The notes under the pieces are model-generated. The model was not told the DNA's origin. It saw only the letters and a program-made list of their open reading frames with translations, and made no database searches. Shown here in pieces: positions 20,444-41,589 of a DNA stretch of 64,000 nucleotides. A program made the translations under genes and the position numbers. Position 1 is the first letter of the stretch. Each line of letters begins with the position of its first letter. This DNA comes from Candidatus Pacebacteria bacterium CG_4_9_14_0_2_um_filter_40_15 (GTDB lineage Bacteria; Patescibacteriota; Microgenomatia; UBA1400; PJMF01). Location: the NCBI GenBank assembly GCA_002788675.1, contig PFRS01000001.1, positions 170,308 through 234,307 of the forward strand, in the 5' to 3' direction.

Positions 20444-23400
20444 CTAATTTGATTGGGCACTCGAGGTACTGACGAGATCAGTCTGAAGGTCTACTTGTGC
20501 AGATACTGTAGCAGTTGACTGAGGTTCAGGCGAGACGACTGGAGTCTCAGTAGTAGGTGCAGGACTTGGTGTTGAAGTTGAAGTTGGTGTTGGTGTTGCA
20601 ACAGGTGCAGGAGTTAAGCCAGAAGCTCCAGCTGAATCCAAAACTTGCACAGGACTTGCTGGAGCGTTGTCGCTTAGCACGGCAAACCATTGCATTGTTC
20701 GATCACTTTCGTTAGAAGTTTTAAATTTCACTACAAAACCGATATTTGTAACAGATTCAACTGAATACTCACCAGAAAACACTTCTGTTCCAGATAAGAA
20801 CACCGTAGGAACCTCAGAAAACGGCTTTTTAAAGTTCACTTGTATTCTTGTCGCACCAGCAGGAACCACAAATGTGCCCAGTGTTTCACCTTCAAAGCGA
20901 ACAGCGTCTTTAAAGACAACTTGTCGCATAAAAGCAACAGAATCTGCAAACTCAGCTTTGGCTGAAAAGACCACGTTGGTTAAAAACTTCCACATACCAT
21001 CGCTGAGCGATAGATACTGTGCCCAATTCGCAAATTCAGCAGATTGAGTACTTTCTGTTGTTTGACCCAACACCACGCCTGTTGCAGTTACGACTGCTCC
21101 ATTAGCATCAATTTTAAGCGCCAAAGCATCGATTTGCTGTTGCTGTTCCTGCATAGCACTAACCAAAAGCGTTGGTAATCGAGAGTAGTTAATTCCCATG
21201 TACCCATCAACCTGGTTAGTGAAGGTAATCTCAGGGAAAATCTTTGCAACATCCTGGGCAATCAGACCGATGTCACTACTGCCGCCGTCTTTCCAGTTGA
21301 AGGTGTAGGTCTGCAACTGCATAACTTTGCTCAGTACCTCTGCTCCACTCAAATCAACCAAGTTTTCTTTAAGCCGTATGTCAGAACTTGAGGTGGTTAG
21401 GGTTCCATCTGCAGTCAAGTTAAGATCGGCACTGTAGGTACCAGAACCAACGGCGCTGAAGCGGGCATTGCCGACGACATCCAGCTTTATGCCTGGAACT
21501 GTTGAGCCAATTCCCACATTCTCTGTGCTAGAATCTACAAATAAGACACCATCATTAGTGTCACCATCCCAAGAGAAGTCCATATCCGTTTGGTTTGCCC
21601 AGTTTCCACTAAAGATAGCTGCTTCAACTTGGATACTTGGTGTACCACCTGCCTGCAAACGCAGTTTATTGTTTCCAAAGTCCATCTTGGTATCTGTGTC
21701 ACCATTGTGATATACCTCACCCCCCGGATAAACTCCAACTCCAATGTTGCCTGAAACATCTAATTTTGTAGCTGGAGATGAGGTGCCAATTCCCATGTTT
21801 CCACCAACTGACAAATCATAGTTAAAGCGGCTCGTACCAAAACTAGTACTTACCGAAAACACTGAATTACAACAATCCCTAAAAAGAGCTATGTCACCGT
21901 TGGTTCCACCAGCATTAAACTGCAACCAACCACTGCCAATACCATATCCAACAGTTTGAATTGAAGTAGATTGGTTTTCGGCGTTGTAGAGAGATAACAC
22001 CCCACTATTCGAAACCTTCATACGCGTTGCACCGCTGGCACTAGCAACAATAATATCTTGATCTCCAGTTTCATTAAAGATACTCAAGGCTTTGCCTGTT
22101 ACAGCCCCTTGCACATCAAGTTTGCTGACAGGACTATCTGTGCCAATTCCAATAGTTTCGGCTGAAGCATCAATTGTGAATACATTATAGTTTGTATCGC
22201 CGTTCCAGATAAAGTCGAGATTAGCCCTATTTAGATTACCTGTTAAGTAGTCATTTGTTCCTTCTGAAAGTGTCAAAAAACGAAGTCCTCCAGCCTGGAA
22301 CTCAAGTTGATCTGTTGAGGCGACAATCTTGGTATCAATGTCCCCTCGACTGATTATTGAACCATTAAAACCAATATCCCCTGCCACATCGAGCATATAT
22401 CCTGGAATGGTCGTACCAATTCCCAAATTACCAACTGTATCTAGAGCCATAAAGTATGGTGCACCCGTTCCAAACAATAGCGCATTACTCTCGTAGGTTT
22501 GTTGTGTCAAAATCTTCCAAGTTGCTCCCGCTAAACCACTCTTCAAGAAATATCCTGCCGAGTAGCCTGAATCTGAAGTATACGCACGGATGAGTGAATC
22601 TTTACCAGCACCTGCCTCAACATCGAGTCTAACTGTTGGTGCATTAGTTCCAATACCAATCATTCCTGCGCTATCATCTATAAAGAATGAATTCGCAAAA
22701 TTAGCTGTTGCAATCTCAAAATCAGGATCTGTTCCAACAGTAGCAATATCTATTTTCCCGTCTGATCTTGAAATAAACCTGGTGTAATTGCTGGCGTCAT
22801 ACCCTACTCGTAATTGTTCTGCAGTATTTAAGATATGAACAACTGCATTTGGATTGGTGCCAAATCCGACATAATGAGAACTTGGATTTATTTCCATGAT
22901 CCTATTAGCAGCTGCAGCATTATTTGTGGCACCAATAATGAAGTTACCATTACTGTACTGCGTACCAGCCCCCATACCCATGTGAACACTTACTTCTGAA
23001 GCATTAGTTTTTGTAAAAACAAGCTGATCCTCTGTGTTCGAATAAAGATGAACTATGCTGGCAGGAGCAGTTGTACCAACACCTAAATTCCCACTCACAT
23101 TCAATGCAGCGTTGCTGCCCGTTGTTGAAACTTGCCATCCACCACCGCTCATACGCTCTAGAGTGGTGTCATATGTTGCCGATCCTCCTCCAACATTCCA
23201 GGTTCCAGAACCGGTCATTGCAAAACGACGATACCCTTCTGTGCTAATTCCTCCAGAAAATAACGAGTTTACACTATTATCGGTGATCAAGTTAAGGAAA
23301 GATCTACCATCTGAAAGCTTAATAAATCCATTATCAAATCCACCAGAAATCTCGGTAGCACCCACATTCCAGTCATTTATCTTCAATACAGTGTTGAAGG

Positions 23401-26400
23401 TATTTGGCGCTGCAGAACTTGAAAAATCAAGGAAACCATTTGCATCAATTTTTGTTATCGCAGTTCCTGAGCTATTTTGCCATTCGGTTAAATTCCCTGG
23501 AGTTGTAGCATTTGCTTGGAAAATTGAAGTTACTCCAGAGGCTGATCCTTTAACGTGTACTTTACTCACAGGAGAAGTAGTTCCAATTCCCACATTTCCT
23601 AAAGGACTTAATAACACATGTCCATCTGCATTTAGAGCAATATTTCCACCGTTATGAGCATAAATATCATAGTTATAGAATGTATGTCTTGCACTTGGTG
23701 TTATACAATTTCTGTTACTACAACCATACTGATCCCAAGTAATATTGCCACTTCTGTCTAGATTAAAGACTGTTGAACCTGAGGCACTGGCGCTAATGAT
23801 ATTTTGATTGCCTGTTTCATTGAGGATGACGAGGGCTTTGCCGGTGGCGTCGCCGTTTACGTTGAAAATGCCGATTGGAGAGGTGGTGCCGATGCCGACA
23901 TTGCCAGAATTATCTACTCTCATTATTTCTACGCCTTGGATTTTAAAAAGATTTGAGGAGCCCGCATACGTTGCGTCTAAGTTGGTATTTCCATTTATAG
24001 TATCGTAGTAGACAAAAAAGTCAGTGTTGCTTCTAAATAAACCACTTTTTGGAGCAGCTGTTTTTACTGAAATATAATTGCTACCAGCTACCTGATAACT
24101 TCTAATTTCTCCACTGCCTGAAGTGTAGCCAGAATCAATCACACCATCAACTGAAAGCTTGTTTTGAGGACTCGTTGTTCCGATGCCTAGGTTTCCATTT
24201 CTATCAATTCTCATAGCTTCAGAAAGAGCGGTCCCATTTGTCGTTGAAAATGCTAATGCAGATCCGTAACCTGCATACTTTATGCCATAAGCCTTTACAT
24301 TTACAACGGAAGTCCCATTTACAGCACCCTCATGAACCCCATCAAAACCAAGACCCGCATTAAAATTATATGCTGCCGTATTTATGAATAGTGACCCACC
24401 AGCACTTCCGTTTCCAGTTCCGCTTCCTATATTAACTAACCCAAATGATGGAGTATTTCCATTCCAGGTAATTCCTGTTGTCCCTGTAACGTTTAGTTTG
24501 CCTAACGGCGCTCTCGTGCCGATGCCTACGTTGCCATCATTCTGAATCACAAACCTAGTTGTCCCAGAAGCGCTTGCAGTAAATATACTTTGATTTCCTG
24601 TTTCATTCAGAATTGCTAAAGCCTTGCCTGTGGATGCTCCTTCAACATTGAGTTTTCCGATTGGGGTGGTGGTGCCTATACCGATATTGCCAAAATCACT
24701 AATTCTCACCCTCTCAACCCCCCCAACAGAAAATCCTAAGCTATCTGCTGTCCCCGCAGTTGGTTGAAAAATACCATTATCAACACCAGCACTCCCAAAA
24801 TTATATGCAGGTGTACCTGCAGTACCATAAGTATTATTAGTAAAACCTGATGCACTAAATCTTGAGTTAATATTTCCACCTGCACCATTAACACCCAGGA
24901 TAACTGTGCCACCACTGCCTCCTCTTAGTTCAATATTGCCTCCATCTATTCTGAGACCAGACGCACTGACAGAACCAAATATATTTGGAGCAGCACTATC
25001 AAGCACTTTAACATTTCCGTTCACATCAAGTTTTTGGGCTGGGGTTGTCGTGCCGATGCCTACATTTCCAGAACTATTTTGAAAATAAACATCACCCGAA
25101 TTAAAATTAATGTTACCTGATGCATCGAGTTGTTGTCTCACTGATGAACCTGAAAATAATTGTAGTTCATTAGACGCAATTAATTTAATAGGATATCCAC
25201 TTCCAGATATCGTTACCAATAAACTCCCTTGTCCAGATCTTTCGAATAATGCACCTGTTTCCATTCCCGTCATATGTAATTTATAACTTGGAGCTGTCGT
25301 CCCCACCCCCACATTCCCCATAAAATAAGAATTCCCTGTTCCATTTACCTGTAAGTTACTTCCCAAAGTAGTAAGTCCAGTTACTCCAAGTGTAGAAGAA
25401 AGTGTTGTAGCTCCAGATACTTCTAAGGTGTTATTTAAGTTAGAAGCACCAGTTACTCCAAGATTTCCTGATAGTGTTGTATTTCCAGTCACTCCAAGGG
25501 TTGTACTGGCTGTTAGTGCTCCTCCAACGTTGGTAGCTCCATTCAAATAAGTGGTCCCAACCACATGTAATTTACTAGTTGGAACAGTAGTTCCCAATCC
25601 AACATTAGTTCCATTGTCATATAAAACAGAATCAGTAATAGCAAAGGTACTAGAGAATTTAGTTAAATAATTAGTTGTGCCACTTCCACCCATAGAAGCA
25701 GATGTTCCACTACAGTTTCCTGTAGCTAAACAAACAATTCCAGAAGCATCTGGAAAGGTCCAGGTTCTACCTGCTGTTAGGTCTTGGGAGGTTATTGTTC
25801 CCGTAAATTGCCCTGCTCCCTGAGCAACGGGCGAAATTGAGATGGGGTCGGTGTTAACTGGTGAAACAGTAAATACTCCACTACTTGTTTGACTTCCTAA
25901 AGTTACATTTCCAGAGGAATCAATCTTAAAAAAGGTATTGCTTCCATCCGTGCTTTCTACTCTAAAAACATCTGCTGTCCCACTGGAAGCTTGCTTAACT
26001 ACCAGTCCAGTGGCTCCAATATTTGTTGGAGTGATTGTTTGCGTGCTGCCAGGGTTGTTTACCAAGCAAGTAGGACACACGTCTCCTCCACCACTTACCG
26101 TTCCCCAAGCTAGCGAGCCACTCGAAACAGTGAGCACTTCACCATCTCCGCCCAGTCCCAAAGCTGCCAAAGTATTGGCACCACTTGCATACAAAATGTC
26201 GCCAGTGTTGTAGGAGGCCAGACCCGTGCCACCGTTGGTGGTTGGTAATGTGCCAGTAAGATAACTTGCACCACTGGCCAAATTAAGAGGGCTGGAACTT
26301 ACTACCCCACCCAAACTACTCTGCATTATGCCTGTTGAAAGCCCTGAAAAAGTTATCGTTCCTGATGAAGTCAGTCCAGTTGCCCCAGTAATTGCACCTG

Positions 26401-27316
26401 CATTGAGAATGCCTCCTCCAGAGTTGTTAAATCCACTGAGAACAGTAGTGGTGCCAAGCACCGACAAATTGCCAGAGATTGTGGTATTTCCAGACACATA
26501 CAGCTTGCTGGTGGGATCGGTAGTACCAATTCCTACGTTGTCTGTTGCGGTTCCTAGCACAACTGATGCCCCATTTTTTGTCCAGCCAGATACATTGAGT
26601 GCTACGGCATCGGCAGCAACGGTAATGGTTTTCCCCGAGTTTGTGAGTGAAACTCCCGTGCCTGCCTCCCAGGTGAGCGTGTCATCGTTACTTTCTGCCG
26701 AAAGTGTAGTGGAACCAATCTTAAAATTTTTAAAAATATTCTGAGCAGATCCCAAATCGGTGTTTTGCAATACCAGTCGTTGATCGCCAGTTATGGTTAA
26801 TCCATCTTGGGCTTCGATCGAGTACACCACATTTGTAGCCTCGATTTCTCCGCCTTGTACTACTAAATCTCCTGCCACAGTTACATTGCCATCGATGTTG
26901 GCATCGCCTTGCACTTCGAGTGCCCCAAGTACCAACGCTTCAGCCAATGAAACAGTGTCCGAAAAAACTGTTTTAATTCTAAAAACTAAGCTGTCTGCTT
27001 CTTCTGGTGAAACAACTCCTTTTACCTGGCCCCGGCTCTGATCATCAGAAGTGCTGCCAAGTACGGTAGGTTTTTCAGGCGATACCTGGCCAGTTTTGGA
27101 CATCGGTCGAGTAGTTTCATAGCGACGGAGCACACCAAAACCAAAAGTGTACACACAACTAGTGGTCAAAACAAACAACCCCACAACAAAAAGTAGGGCC
27201 ACCGCTCTTTTCCTGAGGTGTGTGACCAATTCACGCATATATAGTATATGGTACTGTTTTTTCGAGGAAATATGCAGACGAAGATCGACCGAATAAAGAG
27301 GATCAAATATACTCAA
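20444..27316 (-). CDS. giant (2290-aa) membrane-anchored surface protein of tail-fibre-like repeats with internal peptidase-S74 chaperone domain
   Basis: N-terminal TM (AVALLFVVGLFVLTT). Dozens of G(N)VGIGTT(S/T)P..KL.V modules. SDIRLKENL...GLIAQDV...EQQQQIDAL module 314-224 aa from the C-terminus. PT-rich C-terminal linker. A possible alternative start lies at 27238. Confidence 0.85.
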   Translation of the reverse strand: MSIFDPLYSVDLRLHISSKKQYHILYMRELVTHLRKRAVALLFVVGLFVLTTSCVYTFGFGVLRRYETTRPMSKTGQVSPEKPTVLGSTSDDQSRGQVKGVVSPEEADSLVFRIKTVFSDTVSLAEALVLGALEVQGDANIDGNVTVAGDLVVQGGEIEATNVVYSIEAQDGLTITGDQRLVLQNTDLGSAQNIFKNFKIGSTTLSAESNDDTLTWEAGTGVSLTNSGKTITVAADAVALNVSGWTKNGASVVLGTATDNVGIGTTDPTSKLYVSGNTTISGNLSVLGTTTVLSGFNNSGGGILNAGAITGATGLTSSGTITFSGLSTGIMQSSLGGVVSSSPLNLASGASYLTGTLPTTNGGTGLASYNTGDILYASGANTLAALGLGGDGEVLTVSSGSLAWGTVSGGGDVCPTCLVNNPGSTQTITPTNIGATGLVVKQASSGTADVFRVESTDGSNTFFKIDSSGNVTLGSQTSSGVFTVSPVNTDPISISPVAQGAGQFTGTITSQDLTAGRTWTFPDASGIVCLATGNCSGTSASMGGSGTTNYLTKFSSTFAITDSVLYDNGTNVGLGTTVPTSKLHVVGTTYLNGATNVGGALTASTTLGVTGNTTLSGNLGVTGASNLNNTLEVSGATTLSSTLGVTGLTTLGSNLQVNGTGNSYFMGNVGVGTTAPSYKLHMTGMETGALFERSGQGSLLVTISGSGYPIKLIASNELQLFSGSSVRQQLDASGNINFNSGDVYFQNSSGNVGIGTTTPAQKLDVNGNVKVLDSAAPNIFGSVSASGLRIDGGNIELRGGSGGTVILGVNGAGGNINSRFSASGFTNNTYGTAGTPAYNFGSAGVDNGIFQPTAGTADSLGFSVGGVERVRISDFGNIGIGTTTPIGKLNVEGASTGKALAILNETGNQSIFTASASGTTRFVIQNDGNVGIGTRAPLGKLNVTGTTGITWNGNTPSFGLVNIGSGTGNGSAGGSLFINTAAYNFNAGLGFDGVHEGAVNGTSVVNVKAYGIKYAGYGSALAFSTTNGTALSEAMRIDRNGNLGIGTTSPQNKLSVDGVIDSGYTSGSGEIRSYQVAGSNYISVKTAAPKSGLFRSNTDFFVYYDTINGNTNLDATYAGSSNLFKIQGVEIMRVDNSGNVGIGTTSPIGIFNVNGDATGKALVILNETGNQNIISASASGSTVFNLDRSGNITWDQYGCSNRNCITPSARHTFYNYDIYAHNGGNIALNADGHVLLSPLGNVGIGTTSPVSKVHVKGSASGVTSIFQANATTPGNLTEWQNSSGTAITKIDANGFLDFSSSAAPNTFNTVLKINDWNVGATEISGGFDNGFIKLSDGRSFLNLITDNSVNSLFSGGISTEGYRRFAMTGSGTWNVGGGSATYDTTLERMSGGGWQVSTTGSNAALNVSGNLGVGTTAPASIVHLYSNTEDQLVFTKTNASEVSVHMGMGAGTQYSNGNFIIGATNNAAAANRIMEINPSSHYVGFGTNPNAVVHILNTAEQLRVGYDASNYTRFISRSDGKIDIATVGTDPDFEIATANFANSFFIDDSAGMIGIGTNAPTVRLDVEAGAGKDSLIRAYTSDSGYSAGYFLKSGLAGATWKILTQQTYESNALLFGTGAPYFMALDTVGNLGIGTTIPGYMLDVAGDIGFNGSIISRGDIDTKIVASTDQLEFQAGGLRFLTLSEGTNDYLTGNLNRANLDFIWNGDTNYNVFTIDASAETIGIGTDSPVSKLDVQGAVTGKALSIFNETGDQDIIVASASGATRMKVSNSGVLSLYNAENQSTSIQTVGYGIGSGWLQFNAGGTNGDIALFRDCCNSVFSVSTSFGTSRFNYDLSVGGNMGIGTSSPATKLDVSGNIGVGVYPGGEVYHNGDTDTKMDFGNNKLRLQAGGTPSIQVEAAIFSGNWANQTDMDFSWDGDTNDGVLFVDSSTENVGIGSTVPGIKLDVVGNARFSAVGSGTYSADLNLTADGTLTTSSSDIRLKENLVDLSGAEVLSKVMQLQTYTFNWKDGGSSDIGLIAQDVAKIFPEITFTNQVDGYMGINYSRLPTLLVSAMQEQQQQIDALALKIDANGAVVTATGVVLGQTTESTQSAEFANWAQYLSLSDGMWKFLTNVVFSAKAEFADSVAFMRQVVFKDAVRFEGETLGTFVVPAGATRIQVNFKKPFSEVPTVFLSGTEVFSGEYSVESVTNIGFVVKFKTSNESDRTMQWFAVLSDNAPASPVQVLDSAGASGLTPAPVATPTPTSTSTPSPAPTTETPVVSPEPQSTATVSAQVDLQTDLVSTSSAQSN

Positions 27317-27550: not shown

Positions 27551-28369
27551 ATGAAATTGAGTACATTTATTCGGAAACCAGCACTCACAGCCCTTGTACT
27601 TGGTAGTATCGCAGCCGTAGCATTTCCCTCACAACTCTTTGCTCAAGAAAAACTCGATACACCTCTGGGCATTGCCTACCAATTAAAGGTCGTCAGTGCC
27701 ATTGACGTCTTCAATGGCATGATCGTTTCAATTGGTGACAGTGCATATACCGAAAGTAACGGTACCTACGACCGCAATATGTATGGCGTTATCGACTTAT
27801 CACCGAGTATAGAGTTCACTTTTGGTAATACTGAAGATACTCTGCCTGTTATTGCTGATGGCACAGCCTACGTGGCAGTTTCAGGAGAAAATGGACCAAT
27901 TAACGAAGGTGACCTCATTACCAGCTCCTCAAAACCAGGAGTAGGTATGAAGGCAACAAAATCTGGCTTTACGTTAGGCGTTGCCGAAGAAAGCTACGCA
28001 GGAAGCACAGCGGAAGAACAAGGCTTAGTGGCAATTCGCATCAATAAACAGTTCACTTTTGGTGATGATTCACCAGATTCTGAAACTATTTCCGATCGTC
28101 TGCGAAACGTAGTAAGTTTAAGTGCAATTGCTGCCTTTGAAGAGCCAACCAAGGTTTTTAAGTATGTTGTGGCCGGAATCATTCTCACAATTGCAGTACT
28201 TGTCAGTTTTATTAGCCTGGGGCGCACGTCGCAAAAAGGAATTGAAGCCATTGGCCGAAACCCGCTGGCTCGCAGTAGCATTATAGCCAGTATTTTTGGT
28301 AATGTAGTGGTAGCCCTGTTTATGTTAGTAGCAGGAGTAGTAGGAGCGTACATCATGGTAACCCTTTAA
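27551..28369 (+). CDS. F-type ATPase c-subunit-like hairpin fused to signal peptide plus ~180-aa exported domain; lacks the conserved carboxylate
   Basis: The C-terminus GIEAIGRNPLARSSIIASIFGNVVVALFMLVAGVVGAYIMV aligns with the c-subunit loop/helix-2 (...IEGIARQPE...ALVEAL...), with Leu at the ion-binding Glu/Asp position. It is the first gene of the atp-like operon. Confidence 0.5.
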   Translation: MKLSTFIRKPALTALVLGSIAAVAFPSQLFAQEKLDTPLGIAYQLKVVSAIDVFNGMIVSIGDSAYTESNGTYDRNMYGVIDLSPSIEFTFGNTEDTLPVIADGTAYVAVSGENGPINEGDLITSSSKPGVGMKATKSGFTLGVAEESYAGSTAEEQGLVAIRINKQFTFGDDSPDSETISDRLRNVVSLSAIAAFEEPTKVFKYVVAGIILTIAVLVSFISLGRTSQKGIEAIGRNPLARSSIIASIFGNVVVALFMLVAGVVGAYIMVTL

Positions 28370-28370
28370 T

Positions 28371-28994
28371 ATGCAAGCATTCGACATCAACGTACTCTCT
28401 CTCTGGCTCATTTTTATTCTTGAGCTCATTATTGCTGGGATTGTACTTTCAGCCCACAGTAAAACCAAAAATTTCGAGAGAGACTATAAAAAAGCCATCA
28501 AAGATACACAAAAAGAACTTGAAGACGTGGTTACCGATACCGCCCGCGAAGCAAGTGAATCACTCGACGAAGTAAGCAGTGTTGCGCGAACAGCAGCTCA
28601 ACAAATACACGAACTTTCAGAGCGACTTAAAGAAGAAATCGAGACATCTCTCCTGACAGAAACAAAAGCACAACTCAGCAATCTAGAATCTTCAGCTAAA
28701 GAGCAAATTGCAGAACTTAATCAGGAGCTTATCGGCGCCGTGAGCCACACAAAATCACAAATGAACTCGCTGTTACTTGCACACGTTAAAGAAGCCACCA
28801 AGGAAATCGACACCTATCGCGATGAGCAAAAGTCAGCACTAGCAGAAAAAGCTGCAAACCAGGTGCAACTAGTTGCAAAACAGTACTTAAGTGAAAATCT
28901 TTCAAAAGAACAAGTACACACCCTCTGCTTAGCCCTTATTTCAAAAACATTAGAAGTGCGAAGTACTCCAAGTACCAAAGAGAAATCTGCCTAA
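28371..28994 (+). CDS. ATP synthase b-subunit-like stator protein
   Basis: One N-terminal TM helix followed by about 170 aa of charged coiled-coil. It sits in the operon position of atpF. Confidence 0.55.
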   Translation: MQAFDINVLSLWLIFILELIIAGIVLSAHSKTKNFERDYKKAIKDTQKELEDVVTDTAREASESLDEVSSVARTAAQQIHELSERLKEEIETSLLTETKAQLSNLESSAKEQIAELNQELIGAVSHTKSQMNSLLLAHVKEATKEIDTYRDEQKSALAEKAANQVQLVAKQYLSENLSKEQVHTLCLALISKTLEVRSTPSTKEKSA

Positions 28995-28997
28995 GCT

Positions 28998-29459
28998 ATG
29001 ACTGCCAACCAACTACAAGACTATCTTATTGAGTCAATCCACTCTGCCCACACGCTGTCAGCCCTGAGAACACATATCAGCACGCTGCGCAGCATGCTCT
29101 ATAGAAGTACCAGCAAAAAGCTCGATGCATACTTGCTGAATGAACTTCCTGAAAAGTTCTCCTTTGTAACTAAGCTACTGCGTGAAGCAGCCGACCCCAT
29201 TCAACAAGAAAAATTGCTCGAACTCACAGAAAAAATACTGCTTTCTTTTGAAACGCTCTACCTCACCCTACCCTACTCTCCAACCGAGAGCCAGTTGGGC
29301 AAGTATAAGCAGTTATTTGCTGCCCAAATTTCACAACCGTTCATAATTAAGGTTGAACTCGACCCCGATACTCTTGGCAAAATCACCTGGGAATTTGCAG
29401 GCGCACGCAAAACGGCTTCTGTGTTTGATACTTTGGCAGCAGAAGGAGGCCAGTTATGA
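28998..29459 (+). CDS. ATP synthase delta (OSCP)-like subunit
   Basis: 153 aa in the atpH position. The C-terminus is weakly OSCP-like (IIKVELDPDTLGKI...SVFDTL). Confidence 0.4.
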   Translation: MTANQLQDYLIESIHSAHTLSALRTHISTLRSMLYRSTSKKLDAYLLNELPEKFSFVTKLLREAADPIQQEKLLELTEKILLSFETLYLTLPYSPTESQLGKYKQLFAAQISQPFIIKVELDPDTLGKITWEFAGARKTASVFDTLAAEGGQL

Positions 29460-30937
29460 CCCAAGCTACCATTCAGTACCCAACAGTTGCCAGTGAATAT
29501 GCAGTTGTAACCGCAGTAAATCATCCTCTAGTCAGAGCTAAAGGTTTTCAAACACTCCTTCCTAACGAAGTCGTTATTTTTGCAAATGGAGTGTTAGGTC
29601 AGGTCCTCTCTTTTGATGAACATGGCATCGACATCATGATTTTTTCTGAAACTTCTGTAGCTGTTGGAACCAAAATTTCCAGAACTGGCACTGAACTTTC
29701 ATTTCCCGTTTCAAAACTCAAGATGGGCACCATTTTTTCACCTTTAGGTGAAAGCATTTTTGGCACTGCCAATGCACAAAAAAATGAGACTTTCCGAACC
29801 ATATTCAGAACACCACCCGCTATTTCAACGCGAACTCGCATCACAGAACAATTAGAAACCGGCTACAGTTTAACCGACATTCTACTGCCCATAGGCTGTG
29901 GTCAGAGAGAGTTGCTGGTTGGCGACAGAAAAGCCGGAAAAAGTGACTTTGCTCGCGGTGTGGCGCTCACTCAAGCGCGCCTCGGAACCACTGTGGTGTA
30001 TGGCATGATTGGAAAAAAGGTTTCAGACATTAAACGAACCTACGACTTTTTTAAAAAAAATAAAATCCTCGATACAATTGTCATGATTGCTTCAACTACT
30101 CAGGACCCTGTAAGTACCATTTCGGTAACTCCAATGGCCGCCATGAGCGTAGCAGAACACCTGGTTGGTCAAGGAAACAATGTCTTACTCATTTTAGACG
30201 ACCTCACGACACATGCCGAGTTTTATCGTGAACTTTCACTCTTGGCAAAGCGATTTCCCGGTAGAGATTCCTATCCTGGCGACATTTTTTACCTGCATGC
30301 ACAATTATTAGAGCGTGCTGGCGTCTTTCTACAGGACGACAAAAAAGATGCAAAAGGCATTGCCCTCACCTGTTTACCTGTGGTGCGTACCGTGAACAGC
30401 GACTTAACCGACTTCATTACTTCAAACCTCATTAGTATTACCGACGGGCACCTCCTCTTTGATACAAAACTCTATGCACAGGGTCTACGCCCTGCTATCG
30501 ACACCAAGCTGTCGGTAACACGTGTGGGAAAACAAACACAAACACAGCTCCAACGAGATCTTAACCAAAAGCTAACCAGCTTTATTGCCGAATACAACAA
30601 AACCAAAAATCTTACCCATTTGGGCAGCGAAATTAGCAGACGAAGTCAGGATATTCTTCAAAAGGGTGACCTGTTTACAAGGTTTATGAGCGATTCAACC
30701 CAAGAAGCTCACTCTCAGACAGTACGACTCCTCATTGTGGGCATGATTTGGGCAGGATGGTTTACGAATACGCATGAGAACGTGTTACTCAGCTCTATGC
30801 ATCAGCTCAATAAAATGTATCAGACGAAGGACGTGGCAGCACAGCTCAACAAGATGGTGCTGGCCGAATCATTTGACGCATTCTTAAAAGATATTTCACA
30901 AAATGAAACTATGTTACGAGATATATGCCAGATATAA
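29456..30937 (+). CDS. atpA: F1 ATPase alpha subunit
   Basis: RELLVGDRKAGKS P-loop. LSLLAKRFPGRDSYPGDIFYLHAQLLERA. ISITDGHLLFDTKLYAQGLRPAIDTKLSVTRVG. All close to canonical alpha. Confidence 0.85.
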   Translation: MTQATIQYPTVASEYAVVTAVNHPLVRAKGFQTLLPNEVVIFANGVLGQVLSFDEHGIDIMIFSETSVAVGTKISRTGTELSFPVSKLKMGTIFSPLGESIFGTANAQKNETFRTIFRTPPAISTRTRITEQLETGYSLTDILLPIGCGQRELLVGDRKAGKSDFARGVALTQARLGTTVVYGMIGKKVSDIKRTYDFFKKNKILDTIVMIASTTQDPVSTISVTPMAAMSVAEHLVGQGNNVLLILDDLTTHAEFYRELSLLAKRFPGRDSYPGDIFYLHAQLLERAGVFLQDDKKDAKGIALTCLPVVRTVNSDLTDFITSNLISITDGHLLFDTKLYAQGLRPAIDTKLSVTRVGKQTQTQLQRDLNQKLTSFIAEYNKTKNLTHLGSEISRRSQDILQKGDLFTRFMSDSTQEAHSQTVRLLIVGMIWAGWFTNTHENVLLSSMHQLNKMYQTKDVAAQLNKMVLAESFDAFLKDISQNETMLRDICQI

Positions 30938-31791
30938 AGAGTCTTAAACTCCAGCATGAATCACTGTCAACCATAAATGACTTTTTTTCTGCGTATCAAC
31001 GACTCACCATCTATCAAATGCAAAAAAATCGCACGGCCACGATTAATAGCCGTACTTTTTCTGATGGACTGATAGAAACCTTTATTGACGTTAAACAATC
31101 ACTTAAAAAACTGTTTGATTCGAGCAAGCATAAAGATAAAATTTCCTTCTCAACCCTCGAAAAAAATGGTAGATCAGTAGCTGTATTTATTTCATTTGAA
31201 ACAAAATTTTCTACTGAAGTATTTAGAAGATCATTCGCCCATTTTAAAGAAAGCATAGCTGAGGGAGACTATGAAATTGTCCTGTTGGGCAGCACGGCCA
31301 AACGACTTTTCAGTGAGTACTATCCCGAAGGCACGCCCTTCACCTACTTTGACATTTCCGAAAAAAATATTAACATTTCTGAGAAAAGTGAGTTCTTCGA
31401 GCATATTCTTAAGTATGAAACTGTGGAAGTCTACTATCCTTTTTTTGTGTCACTTCTGCAGCAAGAAGCGCAATCGAGCACTATCTCGGGTGATGTACCT
31501 GTTGGTGATACTCTTCTCGAGGCAGAGCGCCAGAACCGACGCTACTTTTTTGAACCAGATAAACAAATTATTTTACACTTTTTTGAAGTTCAAATTCTGC
31601 GTTCAATTCTGCAACAAAAAATTCGTGAAGCCCAGCTGGCAACCCTGGGTGCACGTATTACAACACTGCAGTACACCCAACAAAATATTGAAGAAGAATT
31701 GCATAAAGTACATGCCCTCACGCGCAAATCACTCAAAAAGCAATCAAGTAGAAAACAACGCAACAGATTAGCTGGTATGAACTTATGGTAA
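30925..31791 (+). CDS. atpG: F1 ATPase gamma-like subunit
   Basis: 288 aa in the atpG position, with a gamma-like N-terminal helix and a YFFEPD...ARITTLQ C-terminal region. Confidence 0.55.
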   Translation: MPDIKSLKLQHESLSTINDFFSAYQRLTIYQMQKNRTATINSRTFSDGLIETFIDVKQSLKKLFDSSKHKDKISFSTLEKNGRSVAVFISFETKFSTEVFRRSFAHFKESIAEGDYEIVLLGSTAKRLFSEYYPEGTPFTYFDISEKNINISEKSEFFEHILKYETVEVYYPFFVSLLQQEAQSSTISGDVPVGDTLLEAERQNRRYFFEPDKQIILHFFEVQILRSILQQKIREAQLATLGARITTLQYTQQNIEEELHKVHALTRKSLKKQSSRKQRNRLAGMNLW

Positions 31792-31827
31792 GAATACTCT
31801 ATACTTACCTCAGAGCGAATCAAAAAT

Positions 31828-33540
31828 ATGGCAACAAAAGGAATAATTAAAGCTATCAGAAGCAACGTGACCGAAGTTGAATTTTTAGAAAATCAACCAA
31901 ATATTTTTGACGTGCTCACCGATCCCAACGATCCTTCTGTCCAGATCGAAGTGATCTCCTCTGCTGGCGATCAGCGCTATTTCTGTTTTATTCTTCGAGG
32001 CGAAAAAAAAATTACCCGCGGAACAGAAGTTATTTCTACCGAAAAACCACTTTCCATCCCAGTAGGAGATACCGTGCTTGGCCGAGCCTTCGACATTTTT
32101 GGCACTCCTCAAGATAGCGGCGCTGCACTTTCAACCAAAACAATTCGTCCAATCCATACTGGTGAGCGAACCTCCATTGAAGAAACCATAATTCCCTCTG
32201 AAATTTTGATTACCGGTGTGCGCGTGATTGATTTCTTTACGCCAATTCTTAAAGGTAGCAAAACAGGTCTTGTGGGAGGTGCTGGTCTAGGTAAAACCAT
32301 TTTACTGACCGAGCTGATTCATAATGTGGTCGAAACTAAAGCTACAAACAAACAAAACAAAGCTAACAAAACCGTCTCGGTCTTTAGCGCCGTTGGGGAG
32401 CGTTCTCGTGAAGCGCAGGAACTACTCGAAAACTTAAAAGACTCGGGTGTGCTGCCCAGCACAACCATGGTGATTGGACAAATGGGAGAAAACCCTGCAG
32501 TTCGTTTCCGTACGGCATCTGCTGCGGCCACCGTGGCCGAACATTTCCGAGATTCTGGTAATGACGTGCTCTTCTTTATTGATAATATGTACCGTTATAG
32601 TCAGGCTGGCTATGAATTAGCAACCTTAATGCGCGCTATTCCTTCTGAAGAAGGATATCAACCAACACTCCCTTCTGAAATTGGCACCTTGCACGAGCGA
32701 CTAGTCTCGAACAAGACTGCTCACCTCACCACCATCGAAGCCATTTATTTGCCTTCCGATGACCTGCAAGACTACAGTGTGCGCTCAACCTTCGACTACC
32801 TTGATAGTTACATTGTGCTCTCGAGAGATGTCTACCAATCTGGCCGCCTTCCCGCAGTCGATCTGCTCGACTCAAACTCGTCTGCTCTTGCTGTTGATGT
32901 GGTAGGAGAACGCCACTTCAACCTCTATTTGGAAACAAAAAAAATTCTCGAATCTGCAAAAGAAATTGAGCGAATTGTTTCATTGGTTGGTCTATCTGAA
33001 CTTTCAGTTGAAGATCAAAAAAAATACAAACGCTCTGTGCTGATCCAAAACTACATGACTCAAAACCTAGCAGTGGCCGAGCCACAAACAGGTCGTCCTG
33101 GTGTTTTTGCACAAGTTGAAACAACTCTTAACGATCTCGAAAAAATTCTTTCGGGCTCATTTGATGATGCTGACCCAGATCTCTTTTTGTACGTCGAATC
33201 TATTAAGGATGAGTGGAAAAATTCAGGTGGAGACTCAGCTGCCCCCAATTCAAGCGCTTTAGAGGAATCTCCCATCGCTATATCGACCGAAATCGAAGAA
33301 AACCAGCCTAAAACTGATCCAGCTGCCATTCCCATGGTACTTTCAGATAATGAAGCCAAAAAAATTGCTGCTGAAAAGCTAGCCGTGAAACAACGAAAAG
33401 AAGATAGCAGAACTATCGAAGAAAAGTATAAAACAACGCTACTCTCAAATGCTGAAGTTGCTGCCAAAACAGACATCAGCGAACACCTCGAAAATAAAGC
33501 GACTGAGTACACCCCAACAAAAATGGATTCCGACGAGTAA
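31828..33540 (+). CDS. atpD: F1 ATPase beta subunit with ~90-aa charged C-terminal extension
   Basis: GGAGLGKT P-loop, VGERSRE catalytic Glu, IDNMYRYSQAG, PSEEGYQPTL, AIYLPSDDLQDYS, LSVEDQ (DELSEED-like). The extension from about aa 478 (nt ~33259-33540) has no counterpart in canonical beta. Confidence 0.9.
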   Translation: MATKGIIKAIRSNVTEVEFLENQPNIFDVLTDPNDPSVQIEVISSAGDQRYFCFILRGEKKITRGTEVISTEKPLSIPVGDTVLGRAFDIFGTPQDSGAALSTKTIRPIHTGERTSIEETIIPSEILITGVRVIDFFTPILKGSKTGLVGGAGLGKTILLTELIHNVVETKATNKQNKANKTVSVFSAVGERSREAQELLENLKDSGVLPSTTMVIGQMGENPAVRFRTASAAATVAEHFRDSGNDVLFFIDNMYRYSQAGYELATLMRAIPSEEGYQPTLPSEIGTLHERLVSNKTAHLTTIEAIYLPSDDLQDYSVRSTFDYLDSYIVLSRDVYQSGRLPAVDLLDSNSSALAVDVVGERHFNLYLETKKILESAKEIERIVSLVGLSELSVEDQKKYKRSVLIQNYMTQNLAVAEPQTGRPGVFAQVETTLNDLEKILSGSFDDADPDLFLYVESIKDEWKNSGGDSAAPNSSALEESPIAISTEIEENQPKTDPAAIPMVLSDNEAKKIAAEKLAVKQRKEDSRTIEEKYKTTLLSNAEVAAKTDISEHLENKATEYTPTKMDSDE

Positions 33541-33543
33541 GAG

Positions 33544-33852
33544 TTGTTAACACAGGGCTCGGTCCTACACACTATGTCAAACATTCCAGATACATTTAAC
33601 CTTGTTGTCTACGACGAATCTGGCGAGCTCTTTTCAGGACCAGTAGCTGCCATTGAAGCAGTAAACGAAGCCGGACCCTTTAGTGTGCTCTCGGGGCACA
33701 CCAACTTTATCTCGGTGATTTCTGGATCGCTCGACAATAATAAACTAGTCATCCATTTTTTGGATGGCAACATGCGAGAATTTATTATTCAGCAAGGCGT
33801 TTTGAAAATATTCGAAAACGCCGCTGAAATTTTTCTGGTTTTTGAGACGTAA
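33544..33852 (+). CDS. atpC: F1 ATPase epsilon-like subunit
   Basis: FNLVVYDESGELFSGPVAAIEAVNEAGPFSVLSGHTNFISVI resembles the epsilon beta-sandwich. Likely start at ATG 33574. Confidence 0.6.
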   Translation: MLTQGSVLHTMSNIPDTFNLVVYDESGELFSGPVAAIEAVNEAGPFSVLSGHTNFISVISGSLDNNKLVIHFLDGNMREFIIQQGVLKIFENAAEIFLVFET

Positions 33853-36545: not shown

Positions 36546-37262
36546 ATGACAAGGCGCCCACAAGACATGTATACTGAGGCTATGCAAATGGATAAGCGAC
36601 TTCCCTTTTTTATACTCAGTTTTGTGCTCATTGCCGTTTGGATCTCAGTTCCCTTCCTGTATACCTACTCTCTCCAGTTAGTGGCACTCACCTTTCTGCT
36701 TTTTATTTGGCTTCGTTTTAAACATAATCGAGAGAATGTTACTCAAATTATCCCCTCAAAAGGAAGCTCTGAGCTTATTCCCATTACAATCGTTTTTATG
36801 CTCCTTATCTCCGCTACCGGGAACACCCACTCTTGGGTGTACTCACTTACCTATGTGTATCTTTTTATCATGCTTTTCTCCCTGCCAAGAGGTACCGCAA
36901 TCATCATGGCCACCGGGACCTTATTACTCCAAGCCTTCTTAGTACACACATTTTCAGCTCAAGAACTCATTATTTTAATGAACATTCCAGTCATCACAAC
37001 AGTACTCCTCTTTGCAAAACAGCAGTATGAAAAAGCTACCCTCGAAGAGGAAATGCTTATGGAAGAAGACGAGCAACTTTCGTCCTCACTTACTGAAAAT
37101 GCTGCCTTGGAGTCATATATCAAGGAGTTTCTCTTACCTAAAACTGAGGTACTTTCGTCTCTAGAGGAGCCACAAACTGAACTCGAAAAAACACTCCATT
37201 CACAAATAACGTTGATCAGCACTGAGAGTCGAAAAATACTGGAGCGATCACAACAACAGTAA
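36546..37262 (+). CDS. polytopic membrane protein with acidic coiled-coil C-terminus (first gene of the surface-protein operon)
   Basis: Four to five hydrophobic helices, then a glutamate-rich tail (EEEMLMEEDEQLSSSLTE...). No family recognised. Confidence 0.5.
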   Translation: MTRRPQDMYTEAMQMDKRLPFFILSFVLIAVWISVPFLYTYSLQLVALTFLLFIWLRFKHNRENVTQIIPSKGSSELIPITIVFMLLISATGNTHSWVYSLTYVYLFIMLFSLPRGTAIIMATGTLLLQAFLVHTFSAQELIILMNIPVITTVLLFAKQQYEKATLEEEMLMEEDEQLSSSLTENAALESYIKEFLLPKTEVLSSLEEPQTELEKTLHSQITLISTESRKILERSQQQ

Positions 37263-37276
37263 CTATACAATTAACT

Positions 37277-38032
37277 ATGTCTACACGCACGCTCACCAGA
37301 ATTATTTTGAGCAGCCTTTGCTTACTCTGCCTGACGGCATTTTCTTGGCGCATATCTGAAGTTCAAGCAGAGCGACTAGAGTCCGACTCATACGTGATTC
37401 AATTTGGCAACTTCAACGTAACTTCCGGAGAAAAAAGTTCGAGTAACTACAACGTCACCGATACTGTTGGTCAAACCGCCGCCGGCGCGTTTGGAGAGTA
37501 CGGGACCTCTGGCTACTTTGTTGGGGCAGGTTTTCAATACATTTACCAAATAAAGACTTTTAGCTTCATCATTAGTGACCTCACTATGGATCTAGGAGAA
37601 CTAACTGACGGTGCCTTTGGCACTGACAATCACACTCTCGAGATAACTACACGAGGAGCTGGTGGCTACACAATCTATGCCTACGAACAACACCCCCTCC
37701 GCATTCCAACAACAAGCTACATAATTAATGATACAACTTGCGATGCAGGCACCTGTACAACCTCAGCAGCCAGTATTTGGACCAATCCCAGCATCGATGG
37801 CTTTGGATTCAATATTCAAGGTGATGACATTCCAACAGATTTCGTAAATAACACCTACTTCCGTCCATTTGCTAATGACGAAGCAGCAGCTACCATGCAA
37901 CCAGTAATGTCATCTTCCAATATTGCCTTGCAACGTACTTCGACGGTAACCTATCAAGCCGCAAAAGCCGGAGATACAGCCGCTGGTCAATTCCAAACTG
38001 CCGTAGTGTACGTCGCTGTACCAGGATATTAA
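37277..38032 (+). CDS. secreted WxL-like (small) surface protein
   Basis: Signal peptide. Homologous to the C-terminal domain of the 505-aa neighbour. Shared landmarks are L..LGEL, TTCDAGTC / ATCTGDSTASNC, GFGFNIQG / GFGYSLDN and a hydrophobic Y-rich C-terminus. Confidence 0.5.
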   Translation: MSTRTLTRIILSSLCLLCLTAFSWRISEVQAERLESDSYVIQFGNFNVTSGEKSSSNYNVTDTVGQTAAGAFGEYGTSGYFVGAGFQYIYQIKTFSFIISDLTMDLGELTDGAFGTDNHTLEITTRGAGGYTIYAYEQHPLRIPTTSYIINDTTCDAGTCTTSAASIWTNPSIDGFGFNIQGDDIPTDFVNNTYFRPFANDEAAATMQPVMSSSNIALQRTSTVTYQAAKAGDTAAGQFQTAVVYVAVPGY

Positions 38033-38034
38033 GT

Positions 38035-39000
38035 ATGAACAAAAAAAGAACTCAAAAATTCATTTCTGCACTAGCTCTTAGTGTGGTACTTGGCTTAGTA
38101 TCTTTGTACCCAAACTCTGTTTCTGCACAAGGTTTTAATCTTACGGTCACTCCTGAAGTACATTACATGCGAATAAAACCAGGCTCAAAGATACGTCACA
38201 CCATCACTCTCGAAAACAAAGGTGACGTAGCTCTGACAGTAACCCCCACAATCTATGACTTTGAAGCGGATGGTGAGTCTGGACGAGCAATCCTCAAAAG
38301 TGCCACCACATTCCCATATCTAGATCTCGAACACATTCAGAACAGCTCACTCACCATACCTCCACATAAACGAGCTCAGCTTGGGCTACTCTTTTCTGTT
38401 CCAGAAGATGCCCCCGAAAAGGAATACCCCCTTACGGTACTCTTTAAAAGTGAACCCGTGCAGTCTCAGACAGAGACTTCACAATCTCAACTAGTTGGTG
38501 CGATAGGAAGCAATCTTATTGTACTTATTTCTCAAGATGAACAAACTTCAGACTTAATAAATATTGATTCAATATCAATCCCCTTCTTTGTTGATAGTTT
38601 TAAAAAGGTTACCTTACAACCTAAGATAAAGAACAATCACTTTGCCGCTACAAACACAGCTGGAACGGTGATTGTGAAGAATATGTTTAACACTGAAGTT
38701 GCTCGATTTAATATTTTTCCAGATACAATCTTGGGATACAGTTCAAGAATACTTAGAGCCCTCAAGACAGAATTTCAACCAGATATCGAGCCAGAGGCTG
38801 TGCCTTTTGCATTTAAACCATCATTTCTTCTTGGTTTATATACAGTAGAAGTCAGCATTACTGCCCCCTATACCAGTGCATATTCTGATGAAGTAATTGC
38901 ATTCGACACTTTTACGTTCTTTGCAGTACCTATTATTCCAATACTGGTTGGGTTGCTGGGAATTGTGAGTGCCATTGGGTATGTGATATATAAGAAATAA
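38035..39000 (+). CDS. DUF916/DUF3324-like surface protein: signal peptide, Ig-like beta domain, C-terminal TM anchor plus KK
   Basis: FNLTVTPEVHYMRIKPGSKIRHTITLENKGDVALTVTPTIYDF Ig-like strand pattern. Single C-terminal TM (AVPIIPILVGLLGIVSAIGYVIYKK). Confidence 0.45.
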   Translation: MNKKRTQKFISALALSVVLGLVSLYPNSVSAQGFNLTVTPEVHYMRIKPGSKIRHTITLENKGDVALTVTPTIYDFEADGESGRAILKSATTFPYLDLEHIQNSSLTIPPHKRAQLGLLFSVPEDAPEKEYPLTVLFKSEPVQSQTETSQSQLVGAIGSNLIVLISQDEQTSDLINIDSISIPFFVDSFKKVTLQPKIKNNHFAATNTAGTVIVKNMFNTEVARFNIFPDTILGYSSRILRALKTEFQPDIEPEAVPFAFKPSFLLGLYTVEVSITAPYTSAYSDEVIAFDTFTFFAVPIIPILVGLLGIVSAIGYVIYKK

Positions 39001-39077
39001 ACTGGTACTTGAAGCCCACACCCTTTCCGTTTAGACTGGATCTAGGTCAAGAATTTGGTCGCTATTGTAGGTATGCT

Positions 39078-40526: not shown

Positions 40527-40542
40527 TACTCAGAAAGAACAA

Positions 40543-41589
40543 ATGAAGACTGCCCGCCCAATTCACACTCTTAAAAAAATTGCTACCTTAGCTGACGCTT
40601 TAGGAGTTGGAACCTTACTGTTCTCGAATACAATTTTTGCTCAAGACTTCACTCAGACTGATGATACGGTAACCCTTACAGCCATCCCGCCAAGAGTTGG
40701 TGATCAAGAACCAATTAAGCTTGCTCCTGGTGCTAAAGAACAAGTGCAACTTAGAATTAGGAATAATTCAACAAAAGCCATAACCATCAACTCGGTTGCT
40801 CAAGATTTTATGCTTGATCTTGATGGACAAACCCCTATTCCACTTAACGAAGATTCAGGAAGTAGATGGAGCTTAGCAGACTGGCTCGTTGTCGCACCAA
40901 ATCAACAAACTATTGAACCACAAGAAACTGCTGGAACTTCTGTTCTTATCGAAGTTCCTGAAGATGCTCTCCCTGGTGGGCACTATGCAATGGTTACCCA
41001 CGAACCAACCACTGGAGTTGTTTCCGAAGATGGTGAATCAGCTTCTGTAATCAGTCAAAAAGTTGGTTCTCTCTTTTATGTTATCGTTGATGGCGTTATT
41101 CATGAGGAAGCCTTTATTCGCGACTTCTCATTTCCCCAGCTCACAGAAGTCGGACCTGTTGATTTTTCATTCTTTGTTGATAATCAATCTGATATTCACA
41201 TCAAGCCACAGGTTTCAATTGAGATCTATAACCTCTTTAACCAAAAAATTGACACTATCCAGATAGAGAGCAAAAATGTATTCCCATTATATAGTCGTGG
41301 TTTCTCTGGAAGTTGGGATCGTGTTTGGGGTCATGGTTTTTACACTGCCAAACTCATAATGAGTTATGGTGAACAAGGAAATGTTGCACTTGCTTCAACT
41401 ACTTTCTGGCTCTTCCCAGTCAAGATAGTACTATCAATATTGGTTATTATATTGGTCCTACTTGCAATGCTCATTTCAATCCGAAGACATATCTTGCACA
41501 AAAACCAAGATAAAGACAAACAGATCAAAGAATTAGAGGATCAGCTAGCTGAAGTCAGTAAAGATCAACTCGAAAAACACGAAGAATAG
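40543..41589 (+). CDS. DUF916/DUF3324-like surface protein with C-terminal TM and charged cytoplasmic tail
   Basis: Signal peptide, two beta-rich domains, TM (VKIVLSILVIILVLLAMLI), then a lysine/glutamate-rich tail. Confidence 0.45.
   Translation: MKTARPIHTLKKIATLADALGVGTLLFSNTIFAQDFTQTDDTVTLTAIPPRVGDQEPIKLAPGAKEQVQLRIRNNSTKAITINSVAQDFMLDLDGQTPIPLNEDSGSRWSLADWLVVAPNQQTIEPQETAGTSVLIEVPEDALPGGHYAMVTHEPTTGVVSEDGESASVISQKVGSLFYVIVDGVIHEEAFIRDFSFPQLTEVGPVDFSFFVDNQSDIHIKPQVSIEIYNLFNQKIDTIQIESKNVFPLYSRGFSGSWDRVWGHGFYTAKLIMSYGEQGNVALASTTFWLFPVKIVLSILVIILVLLAMLISIRRHILHKNQDKDKQIKELEDQLAEVSKDQLEKHEE

Follow-up and report, generated by a model that had tools for sequence, protein, structure and literature searches.

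Could an F-type ATPase do its work without a path for ions across the membrane? This question is raised by an operon in a 64,000-nucleotide stretch of DNA from Candidatus Pacebacteria bacterium CG_4_9_14_0_2_um_filter_40_15 (assembly GCA_002788675.1, contig PFRS01000001.1, positions 170,308 to 234,307 of the forward strand), the whole of which is termed the window below. An initial annotation had described the locus as a set of F-type ATPase-like genes that lacks subunit a and has an unusual subunit c. On balance, we are inclined to think that the operon encodes a derived F-type ATP-hydrolysing machine of Patescibacteria, which has no ion path and acts on surface fibres.

According to the initial annotation, seven genes on the + strand follow one another in canonical order, and the calling of open reading frames (ORFs) agrees. 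The genes occupy 27551-33852, are separated by -13 to +36 nt and have the order atpE-F-H-A-G-D-C with a modified c gene in the first place, which corresponds to the canonical operon minus atpB. The genes, together with the parts of the first one, are as follows (TM, transmembrane).

27551-28369, + strand: gene of the c-like protein (272 aa), first ORF of the operon, in the atpE slot
27551-27646, + strand: predicted signal peptide of the c-like protein, aa 1-32, ending in LFAQ before EK (the model places a helix at 3-24; before the mature part, the family consensus has xAQ)
27647-28078, + strand: predicted exported beta-barrel domain of the c-like protein, aa 33-176, of the phage pre-neck-appendage or cement-protein type according to Foldseek
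28079-28369, + strand: juxtamembrane helix and c-subunit-like TM hairpin, aa 177-272 (profile, hhalign, Foldseek and PF00137)
28253-28264, + strand: GRNP cytoplasmic loop of the c-like protein, G235-R-N-P238, invariant in the family
28301-28303, + strand: Asn251 of the c-like protein, in TM helix 2
28316-28318, + strand: Leu256 of the c-like protein, at the carboxylate position in the alignment to c subunits
28371-28994, + strand: subunit b homologue (207 aa), from the family profile against subunit b in PDB
28998-29459, + strand: subunit delta/OSCP homologue (153 aa), from the family profile against OSCP/delta in PDB
29456-30937, + strand: F1 alpha-like subunit (493 aa), PF00006 at E 3.5e-57
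30925-31791, + strand: F1 gamma subunit (288 aa), the rotor shaft, PF00231 at E 1.4e-12
31828-33540, + strand: F1 beta-like catalytic subunit (570 aa), PF00006 at E 1.4e-59
33544-33852, + strand: epsilon subunit, 102 aa with the TTG start and 92 aa in other assemblies, which use the ATG at 33574; PF02823 at E 2.6e-6

Does such an arrangement occur elsewhere? With the 272-aa protein as query, 381 protein clusters were found at E<=1e-3, and a second member of the family retrieved 682 at E<=1e-10, which is a lower bound for the family. The c-fusion was also found in related genomes, with 344 confirmed matches in a pattern scan of species-representative genomes. Of these matches 80 loci were kept, in which ORFs were called and hidden Markov models built from the seven window proteins were iterated. 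The order c-like, b-like, delta-like, alpha, gamma, beta and epsilon is present in about 70 of the 80 loci, and because the same order recurs in so many of them, the arrangement is far beyond chance. All the interpretable records belong to Patescibacteria (Microgenomates lineages and WWE3), and the Candidatus Pacebacteria organism of the window has been assembled many times, in contigs of up to 1.19 Mb. Two whole copies of the operon are present in each of two metagenome-assembled genomes (loci L025 and L048 in CAYQEE01; L014 and L052 in CAYVAJ01), as would be expected for an accessory machine.

Note that the records of L046, L063 and L069, and many others of the TPA_asm type in the range L006-L085, bear titles that name Gammaproteobacteria, Pseudomonadales, Methylococcaceae, Acidiferrales or Sulfotelmatobacter. 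The betas of L063 and L069 are 83-92% identical to those of loci that include L082, which is labelled Levybacteria, and the closest beta to that of L046 is 57% identical. Judged from these sequences, the foreign taxon labels or the binning are probably wrong.

The protein in the atpE slot and the ion path missing from the operon

Then, is the 272-aa protein really related to subunit c? The initial annotation had divided it into signal peptide, exported domain and C-terminal hairpin, and the same parts are recovered in an AlphaFold2 model built on 30 family members (pLDDT 86.9), in which the helix of the signal peptide is followed by a beta domain at residues 40-169, a single helix at 177-197 and a helical hairpin at 199-236/238-271. 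A profile of the hairpin, made from the last 78 residues of 37 members, was searched against 177,635 PDB sequences, and the five best matches are all F-type c subunits aligned in register, such as A. woodii c2 (E 0.013) and Chloroflexus c (E 0.029), with GRNPLA of the c-like protein opposite GRQPEA or GRNPEI of the c subunits. Comparison by hhalign with six canonical c subunits gave E 1.2e-4 and an hhalign probability of 55%. PF00137 (ATP-synt_C) is matched by 5 of 30 members on their own, the best at 7e-4, and by the window protein at E 0.8, while the canonical c model ranks the 272-aa ORF best among all six-frame ORFs of the window. In structure, Foldseek superimposes the hairpin on c subunits with TM-scores of 0.8-0.88 and a root-mean-square deviation (rmsd) of 1.3-1.8 A. 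Each of these scores is modest, and it is by their combination with the position of the gene in the atpE slot that we consider the c-subunit homology of the hairpin established. The statistical similarity to ATP-synt_C, on which the reading of the initial annotation had been made to depend beforehand, therefore holds, though below curated cut-offs.

Which features of a c subunit have been kept? In normal c subunits, the R-Q/N-P loop docks the ring to gamma and epsilon. Among 290 unique family sequences, G235, R236, N237 and P238 of this loop are invariant, as is I244. The column of the ion-binding carboxylate, 18 residues past the loop proline and equivalent to D61 of E. coli or E65 of I. tartaricus, is acidic in none of the 290; it holds I, V, L or A, and in the window protein the leucine noticed before (Leu256). 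There is one acidic residue among all cells of the TM2 core in the alignment and none in TM1. In addition, Asn251 is present in 286 of the 290 sequences, in TM helix 2 and five residues cytoplasmic of the missing carboxylate. The topology is predicted to be that of a c subunit, that is, N terminus out and loop in, and the barrel domain would be outside the cell because of the signal peptide and the positively charged loop.

An F-type enzyme that translocates ions needs subunit a as well. The initial annotation had seen no atpB in the locus and no conventional c gene, and both observations stand for a wider range. No ORF for subunit a was found in the operon or in the 64-kb window, no second c-like ORF was found in the window, and the 10 kb on either side of the operon contain no atpB in any of the 80 relatives. 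Apart from ComEC, the window has a single multi-TM ORF, which encodes a 238-aa membrane protein. This protein (36546-37262) was considered as a divergent subunit a and rejected, as it has no Pfam or PDB similarity and occurs in 5 close relatives only. Clustering of all the ORFs of 81 loci, the window included, revealed no conserved multi-TM neighbour.

Could subunit a, and maybe a canonical c, be encoded elsewhere in the genome? In that case the operon would belong to a conventional ion-translocating F1Fo enzyme with split genes, and the 272-aa protein would be an accessory or assembly factor or an extra part of the ring. Retention of b and delta would suit such an enzyme, and canonical AtpB is recorded in this lineage: AtpB (COG0356) occurs once, with a single AtpA and AtpD, in genomes of Roizmanbacteria, Pacebacteria, Curtissbacteria and Woykebacteria (Mahendrarajah 2023, Suppl. 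Data 4). However, these single-copy genomes are not known to carry the present operon. A gene in the atpE slot with an invariant loop for docking gamma and epsilon would also be odd for an accessory factor, and neither the 10-kb flanks of the 80 relatives, which are free of atpB, nor the alpha and beta scores, which fall under all equivalog cut-offs, agree with a split enzyme.

The same table contains a genome of the candidate phyla radiation (CPR), GCA_001790445, with AtpA, AtpD, AtpG and AtpC twice and AtpE, AtpH, AtpB and AtpF once (Mahendrarajah 2023, Suppl. Data 4). These counts are just what a canonical operon and one of the present type would give together, because only alpha, beta, gamma and epsilon are recognisable in the latter; that is, they fit an extra set and not a split one. 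A search from the family member P0048, labelled 'Saccharibacteria', gave no match bearing the name of this genome, and its second set was not tied to the family. Among the 33 CPR genomes sampled, none has the COG pattern expected for this operon alone (Mahendrarajah 2023, Suppl. Data 4). Taking these points together, we regard a split F1Fo enzyme as distinctly unlikely, and coexistence of the operon with a canonical enzyme, as in mycoplasmas, as plausible.

The motor head and the stator

Is the catalytic part of the machine still intact? The alpha-like subunit scores 306 bits against NCBIfam atpA (TIGR00962, cut-off 484) and the beta-like subunit 404 bits against atpD (TIGR01039, cut-off 463), and both remain under every curated equivalog cut-off. 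Gamma reaches 48.4 bits against the PF00231 cut-off of 39.9, and epsilon is just over the cut-off of PF02823, with the beta-sandwich domain only. The catalytic motifs, which were reported as fully intact, are indeed present in the translations: Walker A GDRKAGKS and the Arg-finger SVTRVG in alpha, and Walker A GGAGLGKT, the catalytic GERSRE and a DELSEED-like GLSELSVED in beta. They are also kept in the relatives, where GGAG[VL]GKT and GERxRE occur in 61 of 61 beta sequences and the P-loop and Arg-finger motif in 58-59 of 59 alpha sequences. Consequently, as far as its motifs tell, the F1 head looks catalytically competent and active.

Some parts of the head differ between lineages. The betas of the family are 42-100% identical to one another (median 54%), and the C-terminal tail of the window beta, which is acidic, of low complexity and about 100 aa long (33220-33540, residues ~465-570), is confined to the close clade of the window, where beta has 570-630 aa against 455-470 aa elsewhere. 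The PDB alignment of alpha begins at residue 13, opposite residue 26 of PS3 alpha. Epsilon has 81-116 aa in most relatives, and its C-terminal inhibitory helices are absent. At ten loci (L007-L011, L013, L038, L040, L046 and L074) an epsilon-like gene, which matches the family epsilon model at E 1e-24 to 1e-32, lies on the opposite strand just past beta, convergent with the operon; the epsilon gene of the window is on the operon strand.

Could the operon then be the remnant of a decaying ATP synthase, without a function of its own? The genomes of Patescibacteria are reduced, ATP synthase genes have been lost from many of them (PMC10656485, PMC11738941), and alpha and beta score below their cut-offs, as might be expected of a relic. 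Against this, the seven ORFs are intact and tightly packed, the catalytic residues are invariant in about 60 relatives and the loop in 290, and the operon is kept across lineages whose betas are only 42-55% identical. Because the motifs, the loop and the operon order are conserved and the operon has 344 matches in species-representative genomes, decay is highly improbable, and a degenerate relic was rejected on this ground.

The two genes between the c-like gene and alpha had been annotated as b-like and delta-like. As single sequences, the 207-aa and 153-aa proteins gave no match to the Pfam families of b or OSCP. The profile of the 153-aa family, however, matches OSCP in PDB at E 8.4e-9, as well as bacterial and chloroplast delta; conservation is good in the C-terminal domain, the N-terminal one being shortened and divergent, and the IIGGA...G...D.S motif is present in the family alignment. 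The profile of the 207-aa family matches subunit b in PDB at E 1.5e-6 to 4.7e-6, with the C-terminal stretch 168-221 opposite residues 106-159 of PS3 b, the delta-binding region. The b homologue has an N-terminal TM helix, a long coiled coil and this conserved C-terminal region. Designed helical bundles and apolipoproteins also score against the b profile, that is, part of the signal comes from coiled-coil composition. At the profile level, the two genes encode true homologues of b and delta/OSCP, and the stator of the initial annotation is real in this sense. Reduced loci were observed as well: L044 has the c-like, gamma and epsilon genes only, and L022 has a lone c-like gene beside a giant gene.

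Giant fibres, the exported barrel and the proposed work of the machine

What could such a motor act on? The initial annotation had placed the operon between two giant surface-protein genes. This is right for the upstream one, which is directly adjacent; the downstream one lies 12 kb away, beyond the gene of leucyl-tRNA synthetase (LeuRS) and six other genes, and is not adjacent.

20444-27316, - strand: giant surface fibre gene, 2290 aa from TTG (~2252-2264 aa as called elsewhere), an ORF with PF13884 and PF09458
27317-27550, no strand: intergenic spacer of 234 bp between the giant gene and the operon, presumed from its position to be a divergent promoter region
45736-63675, + strand: second giant surface protein ORF, 5979 aa

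A scan of the operon and the spacer with promoter consensus sequences gave nothing better than shuffled sequence. The upstream giant protein is composed of a short N-terminal tail, a TM anchor and a long fibre repeat region, and carries a Peptidase_S74 autocleaving chaperone at aa 1978-2029 (PF13884, 1.6e-13) and an H_lectin domain at aa 2158-2212 (PF09458, 8.8e-5). An ORF of the fibre family lies within 2 kb of the operon at 57 of the 81 loci, at 46 of them divergently upstream, and the next most common neighbour family occurs at 17. In addition, 37 of 40 upstream giants have an N-proximal stem that is homologous to the one of the window giant.

A MerR-type helix-turn-helix on the cytoplasmic side (PF00376, E 1e-13 to 1e-25), doubled in tandem in some cases, stands at the start of the giant fibre protein in about half of the relatives and is followed by a TM segment and then by a huge exported part (L014, L015, L018, L045, L049, L051, L054, L057, L063, L065, L070, L073, L075, L077, L078 and L081-L083). 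The N terminus of the window giant differs, with the short tail and the TM segment only. The MerR domains suggest that the fibre which bears them might be a membrane-tethered DNA-binding protein that regulates the shared divergent promoter.

The exported domain of the c-like protein resembles parts of phage fibres. In BFVD, Foldseek found matches at E 1e-11 to 1e-9 that include tail proteins and tail fibres, among them a 'Preneck appendage protein barrel' (TM-score 0.61, rmsd 2.5). The matches in PDB include a phage cement protein (8hdt_G, 5e-5) and premature phi29 gp12 (3suc, 1.8e-3). The window protein itself reached no Pfam threshold; 7 of 30 members of the c-like family match PF23982, and individual members give weak matches to XM1_gp53_minor_capsid and Phage_cement_2. 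The same barrel domain is also present in the adjacent giant proteins at 8 loci (E 1e-22 to 1e-32). For example, in the giant of L050, a collagen-repeat protein, it overlaps a Peptidase_G2 autocleavage match.

Would the operon then encode an ATPase that exports or assembles the giant fibres? On this reading, their translocation, folding or release would be powered by the F1-like head, the barrel would be a chaperone acting in trans, and the useful output would be something other than sustained rotation of a ring. A comparable case would be phi29 gp12, whose autochaperone is reportedly released in an ATP-dependent manner. The barrel type is found at fibre C-termini beside autocleaving chaperones (in the L050 giant a Peptidase_G2, in that of the window a Peptidase_S74), the linkage to fibre genes is tight, and some of the operons have no stator genes, all of which speaks for an export ATPase. 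However, about 70 of the 80 loci retain a full rotor (gamma, epsilon and the c-like protein) and a stator (b and delta), which export would not need. Furthermore, no translocon-like membrane protein is encoded nearby, and the giant proteins carry ordinary N-terminal signal anchors, which are suited to Sec. We therefore judge this explanation rather unlikely.

For the ion-path-less machine acting on surface fibres, the following steps are proposed. The operon would descend from atpBEFHAGDC, with the a gene lost from it, and subunit c would have lost its ion-binding carboxylate and gained a signal peptide and an exported barrel of the phage-fibre type at its outward N terminus. The 272-aa protein may form a c-ring-like oligomer beneath gamma and epsilon, and ATP hydrolysis would turn or strain this ring against the b-delta stator. 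As no ion path exists, the work would be passed outside the membrane through a crown of barrel domains. Its target would be the neighbouring giant trimeric surface fibres, whose termini bear the same or related autochaperone-type domains, and the fibres might be turned, tensioned, mounted or released during host attachment. In general terms, the operon probably burns ATP for mechanical work at the cell surface. The most specific version, in which F1 spins the carboxylate-less c-ring and the barrel crown grips the giant adhesin fibres, so that ATP hydrolysis becomes extracellular rotation or tension in a rotary surface machine not recognised before, is put forward tentatively, as we hold it to be doubtful. 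If it is true, Patescibacteria would have an independently evolved counterpart of the gliding and antibody-stripping motors of mycoplasmas, for host attachment, movement or penetration.

Several points weigh against a machine of this kind. Concerning the ring, every similarity score to subunit c stays below the Pfam and NCBIfam cut-offs, and TM1 of the c-like protein has no GxGxGxG packing motif of the canonical c. Concerning the stator, the alpha subunit lacks about 13 N-terminal residues of the delta-binding helix, the subfamily L011-L013 has c-like, alpha, gamma and beta genes with no b or delta in the operon, and without subunit a, no known part holds the b stator against the ring. Concerning the fibres, the linkage is incomplete, as it is found at 57 of the 81 loci and not at all of them, and the window's own giant has no match to the barrel domain at E<1. 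Canonical atpB is present in some Microgenomates genomes, and the searches for subunit a cover the window and the 10-kb flanks in the 80 relatives. Finally, we infer ring formation, rotation and contact with the fibres alike.

What has been conserved here is an F-type derivative whose own genes provide no ion path and which is linked to giant fibres; it is probably no ATP synthase. The operon amounts to a natural experiment in which a c-ring has to do without protons, and gives a concrete candidate for how host-dependent cells handle enormous surface proteins. Where metabolic reconstructions of these lineages take alpha, beta, gamma and epsilon as 'ATP synthase present', they need correcting.

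The further neighbours in the window are briefly described here. The LeuRS gene is convergent with the operon and lies 12 bp downstream of it. A run of six co-oriented genes (36546-43653, + strand; 238, 251, 321, 505, 348 and 685 aa) is for the most part without Pfam matches; the last gene contains Big_13 and CarboxypepD_reg, and one gives a weak match to a WxL-interacting peptidoglycan-binding domain. The run may be another surface-protein cluster, and parts of it are kept in close relatives only. Beyond the upstream giant gene are competence genes (17309-20357, - strand), namely ComEA with SLBB and HHH (19656-20357) and a ComEC that is split over two overlapping ORFs, one with the Competence domain (18213-19202) and one with the metallo-beta-lactamase domain (17309-18232, - strand). 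ARAGORN placed a tRNA-Leu inside the second giant ORF (50551-50635), which is probably false, with no support from an Rfam scan.

Comparison with known systems

Compared with the canonical F1Fo enzyme (atpBEFHAGDC), the order c-b-delta-alpha-gamma-beta-epsilon is the same, six of the subunits and the hairpin of the first gene are homologous, and the catalytic residues are kept; even the GRNP loop has a canonical counterpart, in the c subunit of Chloroflexus. The differences are that the operon has no a gene, that the c-like protein has no carboxylate and carries a signal peptide and an exported barrel of about 145 aa, that epsilon has no C-terminal helices and alpha no delta-binding helix, and that alpha and beta score under the equivalog cut-offs.

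The N-ATPases (atpDCQRBEFAG) are likewise a second, divergent F-type set beside canonical ones in some bacteria. However, they keep subunit a, a Na+-binding c with its carboxylate, AtpQ and AtpR, none of which is present in the window operon, and against the alt_F1F0 models the window alpha scores 288 bits (cut-off 750.5) and beta 370 (cut-off 752). The flagellar and type III export ATPase FliI, to which, with FliJ, an export ATPase for fibres would be comparable, is a single homohexamer with a FliJ-like stalk, whereas the window has distinct alpha, beta and gamma subunits, and the FliI models give 160-186 bits against cut-offs of about 600. The exported barrel shares its fold with the phage pre-neck appendage (phi29 gp12), Peptidase_G2 and cement proteins, but here it is fused to a c hairpin in an ATPase operon and is not a virion protein.

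Has such an operon been described before? The initial annotation knew of no such arrangement outside Mollicutes, and full-text searches of a limited library found no description of the operon in Patescibacteria. Jaffe 2020 makes no mention of ATPases, and general works on Patescibacteria count 'F-type ATP synthase' or note incomplete sets.

In the way in which it would work, the operon resembles the F1-like X0 ATPases of mycoplasmas, to which the locus had been compared at the outset. Type 2 (G1-ATPase) drives the gliding of M. mobile and Type 3 is needed for antibody cleavage by the MIB-MIP system (PMC8406192, PMC12994834), and these ATPases are coupled to surface proteins (PMC12994834, PMC8406192, PMC3369863). 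The comparison holds for function and architecture and fails for homology. The window scores against the models MSC_0618, MSC_0619, MMOB1660 and MMOB1670 (362 vs 570, 257 vs 520, 338 vs 600 and 346 vs 850 bits) are below the cut-offs and no better than those against the canonical models, which indicates no specific homology, and none of the NCBIfam mycoplasma models matched the 272-aa protein. In PDB, canonical betas rank higher, the best match of the window beta being 6q45 (352 bits) and the M. mobile G1 beta reaching 269 bits. For alpha as for beta, canonical F1 gives the higher scores, and homology with the mycoplasma systems was rejected on scores. The parts differ as well. The X0 of mycoplasmas has a 12-TM protein and a small cytoplasmic protein without a delta-like fold, whereas no 12-TM ORF is found in or near the present operon and its small cytoplasmic protein is a true delta/OSCP. 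Furthermore, the CPR system keeps b and delta, its two-TM protein is recognisably derived from c, and it belongs to a different phylum.

What the two have in common is the plan. Like mycoplasma Types 2 and 3, the present operon is a cluster of seven genes, whose products comprise alpha-, beta-, gamma- and epsilon-like subunits and a membrane part that is not Fo (PMC12994834, PMC3369863, PMC8406192). The layout predicted for the 272-aa protein, with its signal peptide, large exported part and C-terminal pair of TM helices, is like that of a protein of the mycoplasma clusters. The N-terminal helix of alpha is absent in both systems, as noted for the alpha of mycoplasma Type 3. Genetic linkage to large surface proteins is another common trait, and both systems seem to spend ATP on work at the cell surface. 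As the phyla differ, an independent origin of the present system from those of mycoplasmas is likely. If the machine acts as proposed, no F1-like, non-Fo ATPase would have been known before it outside mycoplasmas, and it would be the second independent case in which an ATP synthase has become a surface motor.

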